A stretch of DNA of 64,000 nt from an uncultured delta proteobacterium. Lineage in GTDB: Bacteria; Desulfobacterota; Syntrophia; Syntrophales; UBA2185. The position numbers are program-made. Where the stretch lies: the NCBI GenBank assembly GCA_963729715.1, contig CAVSPA010000005.1, positions 320,001-384,000 on the forward strand. Reading direction: 5' to 3'. This document shows, piece after piece, positions 28,301-37,300 of the stretch (positions are counted from its first letter, which is position 1; the number at the start of each line of letters is the position of its first letter).

Positions 28301-31300
28301 CATCAGAGTGTCATACAGAGTCTGTACCTCAAAGGCACCTGTTTTGTCCGCTCCCATCGTAGCTCTCGGAAAAGTGTGTCCTCCGAACGGACGCTGCATG
28401 ATCTTGCCGTCAGGTCGTCTTGACCATGGCATCCCCCAGTGATCAAGCAGCAGTATCTCTTTAGGACTGGTTTCCACAAAGCGATCAACTACGTCCTGAT
28501 CAGCAAGGAAGTCAGAGCCTTTGACGGTGTCCCACGCATGAAGCTCCAGGTTGTCTCCATCTTCCTCTCGCATCACAGCTGCAGTGCCTCCTTCAGCACA
28601 TACTGAATGGGGACGCTGTATCTGCACCTTCGATACAAGAGCCACATTAATCGAGTCTTTTGATTTTCGGGCGATCTCTACTGCCGCTCGAAGCCCAGCC
28701 AATCCCGTTCCAAAAATCAAGACATCGTGTGTAACTATTTCCACTTCATTTGTCTTCATATTTCTACCATCCAATTGTCTAAGTTGTGAAAATAAATTGA
28801 GGGTGTCTCTCTGGATCACCCCTTCTTATATTTCTTGACATTCTCGATATAAAGGTCATTCCCCTTTGTGTCATTAATGACAATAACAGGGAAATCCACT
28901 ACCTCAAGTTTACGGATGGCTTCAGGCCCCAGATCATCAAAGGCAATGACTTCCGCTTTCTTGACTGCCTGGGCCATAAGGGCTCCTGCCCCTCCCGTCG
29001 CCCCCAGATAGACACAACCATATTTTTTCATTGCCTCTTTGACTTCCACAGCTCTTGGACCCTTTCCGATCATGCCCCTTAATCCCTTCTCGATGAGCCT
29101 GGGAGCATAGGCGTCCATGCGGTAGCTCGTCGTCGGTCCGGCTGCCCCGATGGGACGCCCGGGAGGTGACGGTGTTGGTCCCACGTAAAATATAACTGAT
29201 CCATTAACATCAAAGGGGAGAGGCTTATTACTGTCTAACAGGTCAACGAGCCTCTTATGGGCTGCGTCCCGACCCGTATAGATCGTTCCTGTAATAAGAA
29301 CCTTGTCTCCTGCTTCAAGGGCGTCTACGTCTTCTCTTTTAAGAGGCGGCTTAAGTATCTTCAATGTTCTCTCCCTCCTTTAAAAGTCGATCTCTGCATG
29401 CCGACTTGAATGGCAGTTAATGTTCACCGCGAGGGGAAGACTCGCAATGTGACAGGGTTCCATGATTACGTGGACATCGAGGGCCGTTATTCTTCCTCCC
29501 AAGCCTCCCGGACCAATTCCCAAATCATTGATCTTTTTGAGCATGCTTTCTTCCATTTCTGCCAGCTCTGGCTCCGGATTCCTTTTCCCGATTGGTTCAA
29601 GAAGAGCCTTCTTAGCGATGAGTGCTGCCCGTTCGAAGGTTCCCCCGACGCCGACACCGACAATGATGGGCGGGCATGGATTGGCCTGAGCCTCCCACAC
29701 CCGCTGCACGACAAAATCCTCAATCCCCTTCCTGCCATCTGAGGGCCTGAGCATAGTTACTCTGCTCATATTTTCACTTCCGCCCCCCTTGGCACAGAAA
29801 ACAATTTTTAACTTATCTCCTTTAACGATATCACAATGGATAATCGCGGGAGTATTATCTCCCGTGTTCTTCCGGGTTAAGGGATTACAGGCAGATTTCC
29901 GGAGATACGCATCTCCATAAGCTTCTCTTGTGGCCTCGTTCAAGGCATCAAAGAGAAGCCCTCCTTTAATCTTTACTTCGTCACCGATTTCAACGAAGAA
30001 GACAGCCAGTCCTGTGTCCTGGCAAAGGGGAATCTTTTTCTCCTGGGCGATTTCAGCGTTTTCGAGAAGCTGATTCAGAATCTCTTTCCCCAGAGGGGAT
30101 TCTTCTTCTGCCAAGGCGCGCCTGAAACTAGCCATGAGGTCATCTCCGGCAATGAAGGCCGCATCCATAATGGCCGCTTTCACCTTCTTCTTAACTGTGT
30201 TAAAAGGAATGGAACGCATTTGTACTCCCTCCCATTTTATCCGATATCTACCAGTACTTGTCCAACCGCTACGGAGTCGCCAGATTTTACATGAATACTC
30301 TTCACCTCCCCGTCAACCGGAGAGGGGAGAGGATTCTGCATTTTCATGGCTTCCAAGGTCACGACCTCCTGTCCTGCCTTCACCTTGTCACCTACCTTGC
30401 AGGTGACTTCAACTATAATACCAGGCATGGGCGCTGTTACTGAGCCGGCACCTGCTTTTGCTGTGGAATTCATTTACACTACCTCCTACTTTATCCGATA
30501 TTAACAAGAACCTGTCCAACTGCTACGGAGTCACCAGACTTTACATGAATACTCTTCACCTCCCCGTCAACCGGAGCAGCAAGAGGATTCTGCATTTTCA
30601 TGGCCTCCAGGATCACGACCTGCTGTCCTGCCTTCACCTTGTCACCTACCTTGCATGTAACGTCAACAATAAGACCGGGCATGGGCGCTGTTACTGATCC
30701 GGCGCCTGCTTTTGCAGCTGGCGCTGCGGCCGGCGCTGGAGCCGCTGCAGGTCTTGGAGCCGCCGGTGCTGCTGCTCTCGCTGGTGCCGCAGGTTTCGGA
30801 GCCGCCGGTGCTGCCGCTGGTTTCGGCGGTGCGGCAACCTGCGTTACCGCAGGAGCTGCAATCATCGCCCCTCCTTCCGCTTCTACTTCTACTGCATAGT
30901 AACTGTCATCGACAAAGACGTTGAATTTCCGGATGCCGGCGCCTTTTTCGGGCGCTACCTTTTCGGGTTTTTCCACAAGTTTCCCCGCCAAGGCTTTCTT
31001 AATCAGTTCGTCTTCTTTCTTTACTTCTTCAATAGTCTTTGGCTTGGCCTCTTTGGGAACGGGCTCGAGACCATACTTCCATTTGAGGAATCTCAATCCC
31101 GTCTGCGGATAGAGGGCGTAAATGAGAACATCTCCTTTGTTTTTCGCGATATCTTTTGTCGCTTCTCTCGCTTTTTCCATTTCCGGATCTAACGCGTCTG
31201 CGGCACGGTTCGTCATGGGGGTCTCGCCACGCTTATAACCTTTCAGACACAGCTTCTGAACAGTTGGATCGATTGGTGCGGGCGGTGCACCATAGAGACC

Positions 31301-34300: not shown

Positions 34301-37300
34301 TTGGGCCATGGCAATGGCTTCACGTCTTTCTAATTCCTGAATTTTTGGAGGTTTTTCACTCATTTACATCTCTCCCCTTTTCTTTATATAGTTGTTATAC
34401 TTTCTGACAAAGTTCTACCAGAACGCCGTATGTGTCCTTTGGATGGACAAAGGCTATCTTCTTTCCGCCGGCTCCCATTCGGGGCACCTTATCGATCAAG
34501 CGGATGCCTTTGGCTTCCAGTTCTTTTAACGCTGCTTCAATATTGTCGACTAAGAATGCAACGTGCTGGACACCCTCTCCTTTCTTTTCGATAAAACCTG
34601 CGATGGGTCCATCCGGTGCGGTAGATTGCAGAAGCTCTACTTCAGTATCGCCCACAGGTAAAAAGGCCGTTGTGACCTTCTGTTCGGCAACAGTCTCCTG
34701 CCCTTCCAGTTTCAGTCCCAGCGTATTAGCAAAGAACTTTAGAGATGTTTCAATGCTGTTTACTGCAACACCGATGTGGTCCACCTTAATTATTTTCATA
34801 TAATGACCCCCCTTTGTCGGTTTTATTTTTCTGTTATGTTTGAAGGTCGTAGCGTTAACTTCTTCCACCTCAAGTATTAACTGTCCGGCTTATCAAATAA
34901 CCTACTTTTTCTTGCCTTTTTTCTTGCTAAGGATTTCCTGTACCCTCTTTCCTATCTCAGCCGGGTTCTTCTCAACGATGACGCCCGCCGCGTCGAGGGC
35001 TTTGAATTTTTCATCCGCGGTTCCCTTTCCACCCGAAATGATCGCACCGGCGTGCCCCATTCTCCTCCCCGGAGGGGCGGTTCTGCCGGCGATGAAAGAT
35101 ACAACCGGCTTGGTGAGGTTGGATTTAATGAATTCAGCAGCCTCTTCCTCGGCAGTTCCGCCGATTTCTCCGATCATAACGAGGGCCACTGTATCAGGAT
35201 CTTTTTCATAGAGAGCCAGCATGTCAACAAAACCTGAACCCGGTATGGGATCCCCACCGATACCGATGGACGTGGTCTGGCCTATTCCCAGATTGGTAAG
35301 CTGCCAGATCGCTTCATAGGTGAGGGTTCCACTTCTTGAGATTACGCCGACGTCGCCCTTTTTATGTATGAAGCTTGGCATAAAGCCGATCTTCCCTACA
35401 CCGGGAGTGGTGATTCCCGGGCAGTTGCACCCAATCATCCGAGCTTTAGATGTCTTGAGCACCTGTTTGACCTTGATCATATCCGTCACAGGAATACCTT
35501 CAGTCATACATACGACAAGCCCGATCCCCGCTTCAATGGATTCGATAATCGCATCCGCAGAGAAAGCTGCAGGAGTATACAAGGCAGCAACATTGGCGCC
35601 TTGCTTTTCTACCGCATCGGCAACCCTGTTATATACGGGGATTCCATCGACGTCCATGCCTCCCTTACCCGGGGTAACCCCAGCCACCACCTTGGTTCCG
35701 AATTTAACAGATTCACGGGTATGAAAGGTTCCTTCCGAACCGGTAATACCCTGAACCACTACACGAGAATTTTTATCTAAAAGTATTGCCATGTTCAACT
35801 CACCCCTTCTTTTAAAATAGTCTGTTGTTATTTAAGCAATGCAACAACCTTTTCGGCGGCTTCATAGAGACCGTCGGCCACGGTGAATTTCAGACCCGAT
35901 TCTTTAAGGAGTTTCTTGCCTTCGTCCACATTCGTCCCCTGGAGCCTGATCACCATGGGCAGTTTCATATCGATGTTCTTGGCAGCCTGGATGATTCCAT
36001 TGGCTACGCGGTCGCACCGGAGAATGCCTCCAAAGATGTTCACCAGAATTGCTTTTACATTGGGGTCGGCAGTGAGAATCCGAAATGCTTTTTCGATCTG
36101 GTCAGGACTGGCGCCGCCGCCGACATCGAGGAAGTTGGCCGGTTCGCCGCCCGCCATCTTGATGAGATCCATTGTCGTCATGGCAAGGCCCGCGCCGTTA
36201 ACCATACAGGCGATATTCCCGTCCAACTTGATATAATTAACCCCTGCATTCTTGGCGATAACTTCCAGGGGGTCTTCCTCATTTTCATCTCTCAGTTGCT
36301 TGATGTCCGGATTGCGGAAGAGTCCGTCATCATCAAAATTTATCTTGGCATCCACGGCGATGAGGTTGCCCTCCACTGTGAGAACGAGAGGGTTGATCTC
36401 CACGAGAGAAGCATCCTTGGCCACAAATAGTTCATACAATCCCTTGGTGATGTTTGCGAATTGGGAACTGAGAGTCTTGTCGCTTCCCAATCCCAAGCCG
36501 TATGCAAGTTTCCTGGCCTCAAACGGGCTGAATCCCACGGCGGGTGGAACGGCGCATTTGATGATTTTTTCCGGAGTTGCCTTGGCTACTTCTTCGATCT
36601 CCATACCACCGGCTTCGGAAGCCATGAAAACGACACATTCCTTGTCACGCGCGCGATCTACCACCATGCCGAGATAAAGCTCTTTCTTGATATTCGATGT
36701 TTCTTCAACCAGAACCTTCTGCACCTTTATTCCTTCCGGACCGGTCTGGTGGGTAATCAGCTTCATGCCGAGGATCTTCTTTGCTGCCTCATACGCTTCA
36801 TCAGGTGTCTTGGCCACTTTCACACCGCCGCCCTTACCTCTTCCGCCGGCATGGATCTGTGCCTTTACAATAGATGTCTTGTTCAGTGATTTGGCTATAT
36901 CTCGAGCCTTTTCAGGTGTATCAGCGACTTCACCGTTGGGTACGGGTACTTTGTAGGCGCGCAAGAGACTCTTAGCCTGATATTCGTGAATCTTCATTAT
37001 GAACCTCCAATCACTATTAATTTGATAGTAAATTAACTTGCTGTCAGTTCTGAAAAATATTTGGTGAGTGGTCGGAGGCCGGAGAAAAAAAGACCTGCTG
37101 GACAACTTAAACACCGATGCGGGAGCTAATTTCTCTGGGAAAATCTTTGACCACTGCGAAAAAATCTACTGCCTTTCTTTTAATGAAGAGTTTGATGAAA
37201 GTGTTGCGGACTACTTGATATTGGTCGGTCGGCTTCATACCACCCAAATTCGTTTCTGTCAACTTTTTTCTGTGACTATTCTGCAATTTTTTCCACGCAT

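Follow-up and report, generated by a model that had tools for sequence, protein, structure and literature searches.

The stretch analysed here, termed the window, is 64,000 nt of contig CAVSPA010000005.1 from the assembly GCA_963729715.1 (G000) of an uncultured delta proteobacterium (Syntrophales; UBA2185). The assembly has 19 contigs and 3,757,204 bases, and is 100% complete with 6.48% contamination. Four ORFs, all on the minus strand, occupy positions 30237-34363 of the window, exactly where the initial annotation had placed a four-gene transcarboxylase-type set. A 12S-type carboxyltransferase of 517 aa (32810-34363), the acyl-CoA side of the transcarboxylase, matches Carboxyl_trans (PF01039) with 636 bits and TIGR01117 with 859.6 bits (below the cut-off of 998.8); among solved structures it scores 690 bits to PDB 1VRG and 625 bits to the Propionibacterium freudenreichii subsp. 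shermanii 12S subunit (1ON3), and it is 95-99% identical in 22 of 22 family genomes. The 661-aa product of 30491-32476 is a 5S-type oxaloacetate/pyruvate carboxyltransferase with a C-terminal biotin carrier domain (HMGL-like, PYC_OADA at 169 bits, and Biotin_lipoyl). It matches the beta subunit of two-subunit pyruvate carboxylase (5KS8) with 501 bits, P. shermanii 5S (1RQB) with 417 bits and OadA (2NX9) with 415 bits; in six-frame profile searches the genome has neither a biotin carboxylase partner for it nor the Na+-pump beta subunit OAD_beta. Between 12S and 5S lies a 69-aa ORF (32576-32785) without a Pfam or NCBIfam match, kept at the same position in five of five relatives examined (61-86% identity). 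It is probably a small structural, epsilon-like subunit; an epsilon subunit is given at that position in the mmc clusters of propionate oxidisers in the part of PMC8892533 consulted. The fourth ORF (30237-30473) has its own GGAGG ribosome-binding site; its 78-aa product is a separate biotin carrier containing an EAMKM motif (PF00364, 80 bits).

These four genes sit within a methylmalonyl-CoA-pathway (propionate) operon. On the same strand are a methylmalonyl-CoA epimerase (34395-34868; TIGR03081, 161 bits, cut-off 115) and, above cut-off in each case, the alpha (34902-35798; NF004230, 434 bits) and beta (35828-37114; NF001913, 560 bits) subunits of succinyl-CoA synthetase and a class I fumarate hydratase pair at 28816-30219 (alpha, 29380-30219, NF004885, 396 bits; beta, 28816-29364, NF005310, 265 bits). 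A succinate dehydrogenase/fumarate reductase follows at 25354-28819, also on the minus strand, with a flavoprotein, two membrane subunits and an iron-sulfur subunit (NF004724, 870 bits; NF004616, 262 bits; Sdh_cyt), and then a malate dehydrogenase-type protein, an oxaloacetate source (24334-25278, minus strand; Ldh_1_N and Ldh_1_C domains). Conservation of the operon is directly observed: the transcarboxylase cluster is found in 21-22 of 22 family genomes, with or without a carboxylase.

A biotin cluster, identified by profile matches, spans positions 1-8778 on both strands. It comprises bioB (minus strand, running off the window start, to 469; 396 bits) and, on the plus strand, birA (626-1612, 230 bits), bioA (1729-3090, 555 bits), a group of SDR, ACP-like, nitroreductase and KAS genes (SDR, ACP-like and KAS from domain matches), a bioF-like gene (6915-8087) and bioD (8071-8778, 139 bits). 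All named bio genes and birA exceed their cut-offs except the bioF-like gene (332 bits, cut-off 426). Of the two BirA proteins in the initial annotation one was confirmed, the only candidate for the second being false. The catabolic role of the transcarboxylase would alone explain why the biotin pathway is retained, so that the pathway adds nothing to the argument on malonyl-CoA.

Absences reported for the genome are based on six-frame profile searches of the whole 3.76-Mb assembly. The genome is without any biotin carboxylase, as the initial annotation had it. For TIGR00514 (accC), which has a cut-off of 626.5, the best match is a CarB-like frame of 1087 aa, whose two ATP-grasp halves score 57 and 39 bits; the best match to PF02785 (Biotin_carb_C) reaches E = 0.16 and lies in a frame interrupted by stop codons. 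PF01039 matches exactly two proteins, the window 12S and C7:446617-448095, PF00364 only the two window carriers above cut-off, and PF03255 (AccA) gives only weak matches on the two carboxyltransferases; AccA was found in none of the 22 family genomes. This directly observed gene content upholds the view that no biotin enzymes remain besides the transcarboxylase set and a single orphan carboxyltransferase. No malonyl-CoA synthetase (MatB) exceeds the cut-off in the assembly (best 300 bits against 558).

The enzymes that consume malonyl-CoA are present to the extent that FabF (641 bits) and an ACP directly upstream of it (92.6 bits) exceed their cut-offs and FabD (244 bits) falls just below its own (260.9); FabD occurs in 11 of 11 genus genomes and FabF above cut-off in 11 of 11. 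The remainder of the fatty-acid synthesis set in the initial annotation was not reproduced. For FabH there is just a FabH-like protein (177.6 bits against a cut-off of 249), and in place of a canonical pair of FabG and FabZ a separate cluster contains FabG-like, FabZ-like and FabA-like genes.

In congeners, the genes for an aldehyde oxidoreductase and an alcohol dehydrogenase flank a 3.69-kb pair of acyl-CoA carboxylase genes, alpha and beta. At this site, inside a 505-kb contig, our genome has 68 bp, against 3,688 bp (alpha plus beta) in congener G010; the carboxylase locus of the genome G014 aligns to contig C7 on both flanks of the gene pair. The deletion is clean and directly observed, and with it the only ATP-using enzyme capable of forming malonyl-CoA has been lost. 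The absence does not come from a gap in the binning: the ancestral site lies intact inside a long contig and is empty. The empty site is also present in five congeners, colinear over the full 6,119 bp in G006, G007 and G011, and as adjacent pieces in G008 and G009. The earlier counts of 15 of 22 family genomes with a match and 5 of 10 congeners lacking one were reproduced exactly. The indel bears out the proposed real loss in part of the genus, but not as one loss: empty-site states are scattered over the rpoB tree at at least three places, a directly observed recurrence, and the pattern is a recurrent presence/absence polymorphism.

The four genes would encode a soluble, ATP-independent methylmalonyl-CoA:pyruvate transcarboxylase, which would serve the carboxyl-transfer step of the propionate-pathway operon. 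The 5S protein would shuttle the carboxyl group from oxaloacetate to biotin and back, the biotin being attached either to the carrier domain of 5S itself or to the separate 78-aa carrier, and 12S would hand the group on to acyl-CoA. Since the only biotin carboxylase is lost and AccA/AccD are absent, the same transcarboxylase most likely also carboxylates acetyl-CoA, with oxaloacetate as donor or with methylmalonyl-CoA acting on 12S alone. A point against this reading is that oxaloacetate as donor would drain C4 acids, which would have to be replenished without pyruvate carboxylase. FabD, FabF and ACP would draw on the malonyl-CoA produced, as would the pimelate arm of biotin synthesis. We consider such synthesis, from acetyl-CoA and oxaloacetate or methylmalonyl-CoA, the best explanation, about evenly poised between right and wrong and reached largely by elimination, with literature precedent; the transcarboxylase would then be the sole malonyl-CoA source. 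The interpretation in the initial annotation, malonyl-CoA by ATP-independent transcarboxylation, is partly supported: the absence and the loss stand, and the transcarboxylation itself is plausible from elimination, precedent, a non-Asp residue in 12S and order-wide co-occurrence. If it is true, one ATP is saved per C2 unit, and fatty-acid synthesis is supplied by a propionate-pathway transcarboxylase without ATP cost.

The residue concerned lies at a position (ScPccB D422, MePcc D407, ScAccB I420) that controls acetyl-CoA use, according to the consulted parts of PMC7835884 and PMC10266731. By alignment, the window 12S has Leu410 there, not Asp. The surrounding motif is identical in nine of nine sequences compared, five from genomes with the carboxylase and four from genomes without, and no clade-specific 12S substitution occurs among the nine. 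Motif and cluster being the same in both groups, nothing in 12S marks a new role, and this identity across kin, on the sequences compared, argues against specific adaptation. New here is a carrier duplication confined to our genome and its two carboxylase-less sisters. The free carrier is a tandem copy of the carrier domain of 5S, 89% identical in nucleotides over 225 nt to window positions 30491-30727, where the 5S gene has its 3' end; it adjoins 5S only in the carboxylase-less clade of G000, G006 and G007. The three orthologues differ by 13-16 synonymous and 1-2 non-synonymous changes, and the carrier is under purifying selection. The duplicate may serve carboxyltransferases left without an alpha subunit. 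The duplication is a single evolutionary event, which counts against the support it gives to the transcarboxylase as malonyl-CoA source.

We surveyed our own sample of 81 Syntrophales genomes, 72 of them high-quality, with PF02785, which is present in 59 of the 81; the figure of 22 of 31 in the initial annotation was not reproduced. The carboxylase is missing in 17 of the 72, including three 100%-complete bins. In the 16 of these 17 that were examined, related genomes that are not independent, FabF and 5S occur together in 11, FabF without 5S in one (G096), neither in four (one family) and 5S without FabF in none; 15 of the 16 have a carboxyltransferase. Among genomes of the order that do contain the carboxylase, PYC_OADA proteins were likewise found in ten of ten sampled, in most cases as PycB adjoining the carboxylase gene, and the co-occurrence is therefore weak evidence. 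The genome with FabF and neither carboxylase nor 5S implies that there, at any rate, malonyl-CoA must arise by another route.

One such route, which would account for that exception, is oxidative decarboxylation of oxaloacetate by a 2-oxoacid:ferredoxin oxidoreductase to malonyl-CoA, CO2 and reduced ferredoxin, the transcarboxylase then serving propionate only. The genome encodes this enzyme class, with one member in the window (53648-56928). That member, the only one examined, scores as oxalate-type (alpha subunit 573 bits, cut-off 500), and we know of no ferredoxin-dependent enzyme for this reaction, so that we hold the route to be unlikely. We think it still less likely that the absence is an artefact, with a biotin carboxylase left unassembled or unbinned on a small or repeat-flanked contig. 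In favour of an artefact, the assembly is a contaminated bin of 19 contigs, and G011 has its carboxylase pair on a contig of 12.8 kb, bracketed by ~175-bp repeats that recur in many contigs of our genome; a carboxylase copy can evidently sit on a small repeat-flanked contig of the kind that binning can lose. Against this stand the intact, empty site, the high-quality genomes of the order without carboxylase, and the sisters G006 and G007 (99% complete, 2% contamination), which have none anywhere. Equally improbable is that an acyl-CoA ligase or CoA-transferase makes malonyl-CoA from free malonate or another precursor, or that lipids derive mostly from reversed beta-oxidation acyl-CoAs or imported fatty acids, with a trickle needed. 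Scores of 210-300 bits to the malonyl-CoA synthase model are reached by at least ten frames of AMP-forming ligases, and thiolases, acyl-CoA dehydrogenases, ETF and CoA-transferases abound in the genome; however, no ligase frame attains the curated cut-off of 558 bits, no genes for malonate decarboxylase or malonate uptake are evident in the parts examined, and FabD, FabF and ACP, any use of which requires malonyl-CoA, are kept throughout the genus. Least probable is an unrecognised enzyme, non-homologous to known biotin carboxylases, that carboxylates biotin or acetyl-CoA directly: the gap itself and G096 would fit it, but no candidate was seen, the ATP-grasp matches to the accC model being only CarB and succinyl-CoA synthetase-like frames.

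The predicted transcarboxylase resembles the methylmalonyl-CoA:pyruvate transcarboxylase of P. shermanii (12S, 5S, 1.3S) in having 12S- and 5S-type carboxyltransferases and a biotin carrier, no ATP-using subunit and no membrane pump, and a methylmalonyl-CoA pathway context. It differs in that the carrier is fused to 5S, with a second copy as a bare 78-aa domain, and in its extra 69-aa subunit; among solved structures its 5S part comes closest to a pyruvate carboxylase beta subunit rather than to Propionibacterium 5S, and the enzyme here would be the only malonyl-CoA route. The P. shermanii 1.3S subunit has 123 aa with a tethering N-terminal tail, and no such protein is found here. In the congeners' ATP-dependent acyl-CoA carboxylase, absent from our genome, alpha combines biotin carboxylase and carrier, and beta is a PccB/AccD5-type carboxyltransferase that shares 53% identity with the window 12S and likewise lacks Asp at the specificity position, having Val instead. 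The best solved-structure match of 12S, 1VRG, is the Thermotoga maritima TM0716-type carboxyltransferase, with Ile at that position. As a control genome in the same profile searches, T. maritima matches FabD, FabF, ACP, Carboxyl_trans and PYC_OADA, and neither biotin carboxylase nor AccA; unlike our genome it matches OAD_beta, and in that organism a Na+-coupled enzyme may thus play a part. No malonyl-CoA route for T. maritima was found in the literature searched. The mmc clusters of Pelotomaculum and Syntrophobacter likewise group succinyl-CoA synthetase, epimerase, 5S, fumarase, succinate dehydrogenase and malate dehydrogenase, their carboxyltransferase being annotated as 'decarboxylase alpha', epsilon and gamma subunits (PMC8892533, in part); the host here differs in being a Syntrophales member. 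The same part of that paper does not discuss a missing acetyl-CoA carboxylase, a term that it uses once, in another context. Precedent for the acetyl-CoA reaction comes from Propionibacterium, whose transcarboxylase interconverts acetyl-CoA and oxaloacetate with malonyl-CoA and pyruvate (excerpt of PMC12502205, citing Wood 1963). Another parallel is Entamoeba, which lacks conventional malonyl-CoA-forming enzymes and makes malonyl-CoA by transcarboxylase: as in Entamoeba/Mastigamoeba (PMC8136499, in part), a biotin transcarboxylase would use acetyl-CoA and oxaloacetate where conventional malonyl-CoA synthesis is absent, here as predicted from genes, with the acyl-CoA side apparently formed by a separate 12S (PccB-type) hexamer subunit.

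Four co-directional genes on the minus strand at 30237-34363 form part of a longer operon. They encode a 12S-type (acyl-CoA-side) carboxyltransferase of 517 aa (32810-34363; PF01039, 636 bits), a 69-aa ORF with no family match (32576-32785), a 5S-type (oxaloacetate/pyruvate-side) protein of 661 aa with HMGL-like, PYC_OADA and C-terminal Biotin_lipoyl domains (30491-32476), and a free biotin carrier of 78 aa, again Biotin_lipoyl (30237-30473). Upstream lie genes for succinyl-CoA synthetase beta and alpha (35828-37114 and 34902-35798) and methylmalonyl-CoA epimerase (34395-34868); downstream are those for the two subunits of a class I fumarase (29380-30219 and 28816-29364), succinate dehydrogenase/fumarate reductase (25354-28819) and a malate dehydrogenase-type protein (24334-25278). 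Among solved structures, the 12S-like protein scores 690 bits against 1VRG, a carboxyltransferase of Thermotoga maritima, and 625 bits against 1ON3, the 12S subunit of Propionibacterium; it also matches several PccB proteins. The best match of the 5S-like protein is the beta subunit of a two-subunit pyruvate carboxylase (5KS8 chain C, 501 bits), with Propionibacterium 5S (1RQB, 417 bits) and OadA (415 bits) among the others; it also scores 736 bits against NF006761 (cut-off 402), and has the C-terminal carrier of that PycB type. The motif EAMKM, with its Met-Lys-Met biotin site, was read in the translations of both carriers. Over all seven genera of the family UBA2185 the 12S is 95–99% identical, against 54–98% for the neighbouring 5S, identities that show an unusually strong constraint on 12S. 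From about residue 463 onward the 12S gene of one congener, G006 (L054, contig C23), is garbled and contains X residues and a stop; the cause may be a misassembly, or else real damage to the gene in a genome that has no carboxylase.

Six-frame profile searches covered all 19 contigs of the assembly (3.76 Mb; completeness 100%, contamination 6.48%). The accC model TIGR00514 found at best the ATP-grasp halves of a CarB-like frame, at 57 bits against a cut-off of 626.5, and Biotin_carb_C (PF02785), which matched in 13 of 14 reference genomes, T. maritima being the exception, gave no credible match. Carboxyl_trans occurs in exactly two proteins and biotin carriers in the two window genes only. The initial annotation was therefore right that biotin carboxylase is missing, and that the window set and one second carboxyltransferase are the remaining biotin enzymes. 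AccA (PF03255) produced just weak matches on the two PccB-type proteins, and a malonyl-CoA synthase model reached at most 300 bits across the assembly (cut-off 558). The earlier family count also held: biotin carboxylase is found in 15 of 22 genomes and in five of ten congeners, mostly as an alpha subunit of ∼687 aa.

FabD, FabF and ACP are present as annotated (244, 641 and 92.6 bits), FabD lying just below its cut-off of 260.9 and the other two above theirs, with the ACP gene immediately upstream of that for FabF. For FabH, FabG and FabZ, also claimed earlier, the proteins found were FabH-like (177.6 against 249), FabG-like (240 against 298) and FabZ-like (79 against 113), all below cut-off and encoded in a separate cluster at 710–715 kb of contig C5; neither these three nor an enoyl reductase were searched for genome-wide. 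The gene content of that region (C5:707000-719000, L056), with acyl-CoA dehydrogenase, FabH-like, FabA-like (above cut-off), FabG-like, FabZ-like, KAS and small ACP-like genes, suggests a specialised lipid or polyketide-like product. Scans with FabZ and FabI motifs had no match, which is no evidence of absence. For biotin synthesis, BioB, BioA, BioD and the ligase BirA exceed their cut-offs and a BioF-like protein falls below its own. Of the two BirA proteins claimed, one was found, in the window; the second was not confirmed. Motifs for BioB and biotin ligase first led to false candidates, one being a phospholipase A and the other an unrelated 125-aa frame; a second motif found the true BioB. 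The biotin cluster occupies 1-8778, its bioB (L058:190-1170) running off the window start. Between bioA and bioF are SDR, ACP-like, nitroreductase and KAS II-like genes and family-less ORFs of 108 and 155 aa; the fatty-acid-synthesis-like genes are presumably a dedicated pimeloyl-ACP module, and such a module would in turn require malonyl units.

As a source of malonyl-CoA the transcarboxylase would convert acetyl-CoA and oxaloacetate to malonyl-CoA and pyruvate. Engineers have used the Propionibacterium enzyme for this reaction, citing Wood et al. 1963 (PMC12502205), and Entamoeba, without conventional malonyl-CoA-forming enzymes, is described as having a transcarboxylase for malonyl-CoA (PMC8136499). 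In PccB-type carboxyltransferases, as reported in PMC7835884 and PMC10266731, one pocket residue controls the use of acetyl-CoA. The propionyl-specific PccB of Streptomyces has Asp422 there and the promiscuous AccB has Ile420; in a Methylorubrum enzyme the residue is Asp407, and its change to Ile gave ∼14-fold more acetyl-CoA activity. By alignment the window 12S carries Leu410 here, and the T. maritima protein Ile. The motif at Leu410 is invariant in nine of nine family sequences compared, with or without carboxylase, and no adaptive 12S changes were found in the carboxylase-less genomes; the pocket would thus be permissive family-wide, not newly adapted. The earlier proposal of ATP-independent transcarboxylation gains from the enzyme precedents and from the non-Asp residue at 410, and is weakened by the sameness of the 12S motif whether or not carboxylase is present. 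We regard the window transcarboxylase as the best available interpretation of the malonyl-CoA source, and about as probable as its contrary. Alternatively, acetyl-CoA and methylmalonyl-CoA could give malonyl-CoA and propionyl-CoA on 12S alone. With oxaloacetate as the donor, C4 acids would be drained in a genome that has no pyruvate carboxylase. A rival route, with a described precedent (bioRxiv 10.1101/2022.10.28.514148), would form malonyl-CoA by oxidative decarboxylation of oxaloacetate.

The transcarboxylase reading presupposes that the carboxylase is truly gone, which comparison within the genus supports. In G014, a congener assembled as a single contig, the gene for a beta subunit of PccB type (540 aa) precedes that for an alpha subunit of 684 aa, which combines biotin carboxylase and carrier, and this pair is flanked by alcohol dehydrogenase and aldehyde:ferredoxin oxidoreductase genes. 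The flanks align to a single place within the 505-kb contig C7 of our genome. Compared with the congener G010, our genome differs at this locus only by the pair, with 68 bp of intergenic DNA in place of 3,688 bp and sharp boundaries. G006, G007 and G011 have the same empty site, colinear across all 6,119 bp, and G009 and G008 show it in adjacent pieces; G010, G012, G013 and G014 carry the pair at this locus, and G005 is uninformative here. An intact empty site inside a long contig, recurring in congeners, bears out the earlier claim of a real loss in part of the genus. In an unrooted FastTree nucleotide tree of the single gene rpoB, our genome, G006 and G007 form one carboxylase-less clade (support 1.0), and G009, G008 and G005 fall elsewhere, beside genomes with the pair. 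This scatter of the carboxylase-less genomes implies at least three losses of the pair, or exchanges of the two alleles. Since AccA model TIGR00513 matched in none of the 22 family genomes, the alpha/beta enzyme is left as the sole acetyl-CoA carboxylase candidate of those relatives that encode it; the beta subunit of the congeners has Val, not Asp, at the specificity position. The permissive 12S pocket would fit repeated, unpunished loss of the ATP-dependent enzyme, and proves nothing about activity.

Besides the empty site, G011 carries a copy of the pair that is more divergent, 79% identical against ∼88% for the flanks. This copy lies on a 12.8-kb contig between ∼175-bp repeats (L026, G011:C72, 8100-8275 and 12283-12462), and repeat copies 75–85% identical to these occur in at least seven contigs of our genome; they may form a mobile or recombinogenic element by which the pair is moved. 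Mainly because the G011 copy sits on such a small repeat-flanked contig, we keep a small probability that the source organism has a biotin carboxylase gene that was left out of the bin. Public runs, all stored as contigs, contained at best 0.33 of the words of the empty-site stretch, too little for any to serve as the source sample. Four of them, compared with the G010 locus, gave contigs of 150–680 bp, mostly <90% alike, none of which bridges or fills the pair, and so are uninformative on an unbinned copy or natural alleles.

Across the order, Biotin_carb_C was found in 59 of 81 sampled genomes, and in 55 of the 72 that are ≥90% complete and ≤5% contaminated; whole families are without it. 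We examined 16 carboxylase-less genomes at least 90% complete, excluding our genome and its congener G007, which are also in the sample. A Carboxyl_trans protein is present in 15, many scoring 600–656 bits like the window 12S; PYC_OADA is present in 11 and FabF above cut-off in 12. FabF and 5S occur together in 11 genomes, FabF alone in one (G096), neither in four, all of one family, and 5S without FabF in none. That FabF in the absence of carboxylase needs a 5S-type transcarboxylase fits six of seven family lineages. The co-occurrence is weak evidence, because PYC_OADA is also present in 10/10 sampled carboxylase-containing genomes of the order (in eight as a PycB gene within 2 kb of the carboxylase gene) and because related genomes are not independent. 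The family with neither gene (f20: G040, G059, G076 and G090), which also has no biotin carboxylase, may be without any type II fatty-acid synthesis; three of the four have two adjacent carboxyltransferase paralogues. The T. maritima control genome had no match for biotin carboxylase or AccA and did match FabD, FabF, ACP, Carboxyl_trans and PYC_OADA, so that a cultured bacterium poses the same puzzle. Searches of the accessible literature on acetyl-CoA carboxylase missing from Syntrophales, Syntrophus, Smithella or UBA2185, on organisms without the enzyme, and on Thermotoga (from listings) returned nothing on the question.

The free carrier is new in this analysis. It arose by tandem duplication of the 3'-terminal ∼225 nt of the 5S gene, to which it is 89% identical in nucleotide sequence, and has a GGAGG ribosome-binding site of its own. 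Only in our genome, G006 (97%) and G007 (99%), exactly the carboxylase-less clade, does a second carrier gene directly follow 5S; there is none after 5S in G010-G014, G005, G017, G001 or G020, and G008 and both G009 copies are uninformative since their contigs stop at the 5S gene. Between the three orthologues are 13–16 synonymous and 1–2 non-synonymous differences (crude ratio 0.02–0.05); so few non-synonymous changes indicate that selection maintains the gene. It might stand in for the carrier that disappeared along with the alpha subunit, and it may serve the second carboxyltransferase; because the duplication is one evolutionary event, this is suggestive only. That second enzyme, of 551 aa (C7:446617-448095; 8579-10234 of L012, which is C7:438000-457000), resembles methylcrotonyl-CoA carboxylase beta, and no alpha subunit for it was found anywhere in the genome. 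Its neighbours are two HMG-CoA-lyase-like genes, an enoyl-CoA hydratase gene and a weak CoA-transferase A/B-like pair. Glutaconyl-CoA decarboxylase was rejected as its identity, with 78–86 bits to GcdA against 350–378 bits to methylcrotonyl-CoA carboxylase beta-type chains.

A wider picture can be drawn tentatively, though we think it rather unlikely to be right: in Syntrophales a catabolic transcarboxylase would repeatedly have replaced ATP-dependent carboxylases in malonyl-CoA supply, at least three times in this genus and in roughly one in four high-quality genomes of the order, and these energy-starved syntrophs would make their lipids with no ATP spent on carboxylation. In the clade of our genome, the alpha subunit and its carrier would first have been lost; a copy of the 5S carrier domain would then have become a free biotin protein, shuttling carboxyl groups among 5S, 12S and the orphan carboxyltransferase in an ATP-free exchange network.

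Acetyl-CoA carboxylase is regarded as a universal and essential gateway to fatty-acid synthesis in bacteria. If the transcarboxylase does supply malonyl-CoA, a free-living lineage that dropped this enzyme yet kept FabD, FabF and ACP would have a natural ATP-free route; about seven ATP per palmitate would be saved, an economy that matters for life near the thermodynamic limit. It would also change how metabolic models and annotation pipelines fill this gap in Syntrophales, perhaps also in Thermotoga, and provide a natural template for engineered malonyl-CoA supply by transcarboxylase, so far built with the Propionibacterium enzyme.

Two further gene groups in the window bear mention. EtfB and EtfA genes followed by one for a 722-aa CCG cysteine-rich domain protein (11251-15228) adjoin an acetyl-CoA synthetase gene (9258-11234); syntrophs commonly have such an arrangement for passing on electrons from the oxidation of acyl-CoA. 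Within 49497-58480, four genes encode a 2-oxoacid:ferredoxin oxidoreductase that is of the oxalate oxidoreductase type by score (alpha 573 bits, cut-off 500), flanked by genes for two GntR/FCD regulators, an AAA/CDC48-like ATPase and an MFS transporter.

Among known systems, the cluster is close in composition to transcarboxylases of the EC 2.1.3.1 type: 12S-type and 5S-type subunits and a biotinyl carrier are all present, and the genome likewise has neither biotin carboxylase nor membrane pump. Enzymes of this type move a carboxyl group between oxaloacetate and propionyl-CoA and have a side activity on acetyl-CoA, reactions that the window enzyme may share. In methylmalonyl-CoA:pyruvate transcarboxylase the 1.3S carrier is a separate protein whose N-terminal tail ties 12S to 5S; our genome, in contrast, has no separate tailed 1.3S, its carriers being the domain fused to 5S and the bare 78-aa domain. 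Two-subunit pyruvate carboxylase (PycA/PycB) shares the PycB-type subunit but not the PycA biotin carboxylase subunit, which is absent from the genome, and of heteromeric acetyl-CoA carboxylase (AccABCD) both AccC and the AccA/AccD carboxyltransferase are missing. The Na+-translocating biotin decarboxylases (Oad/Mmd/Gcd) differ in having an integral membrane beta subunit; the pump model OAD_beta (PF03977) had no match at E ≤ 1 in the genome, and on this ground, together with the presence of 5S, Na+-translocating methylmalonyl-CoA decarboxylase was rejected as the identity of the cluster. The gene set agrees with the 'mmc' clusters of syntrophic propionate oxidisers as described in PMC8892533, including the small epsilon and gamma (carrier) subunits. 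The cluster belongs to a known enzyme family, in a physiological role that is probably new.
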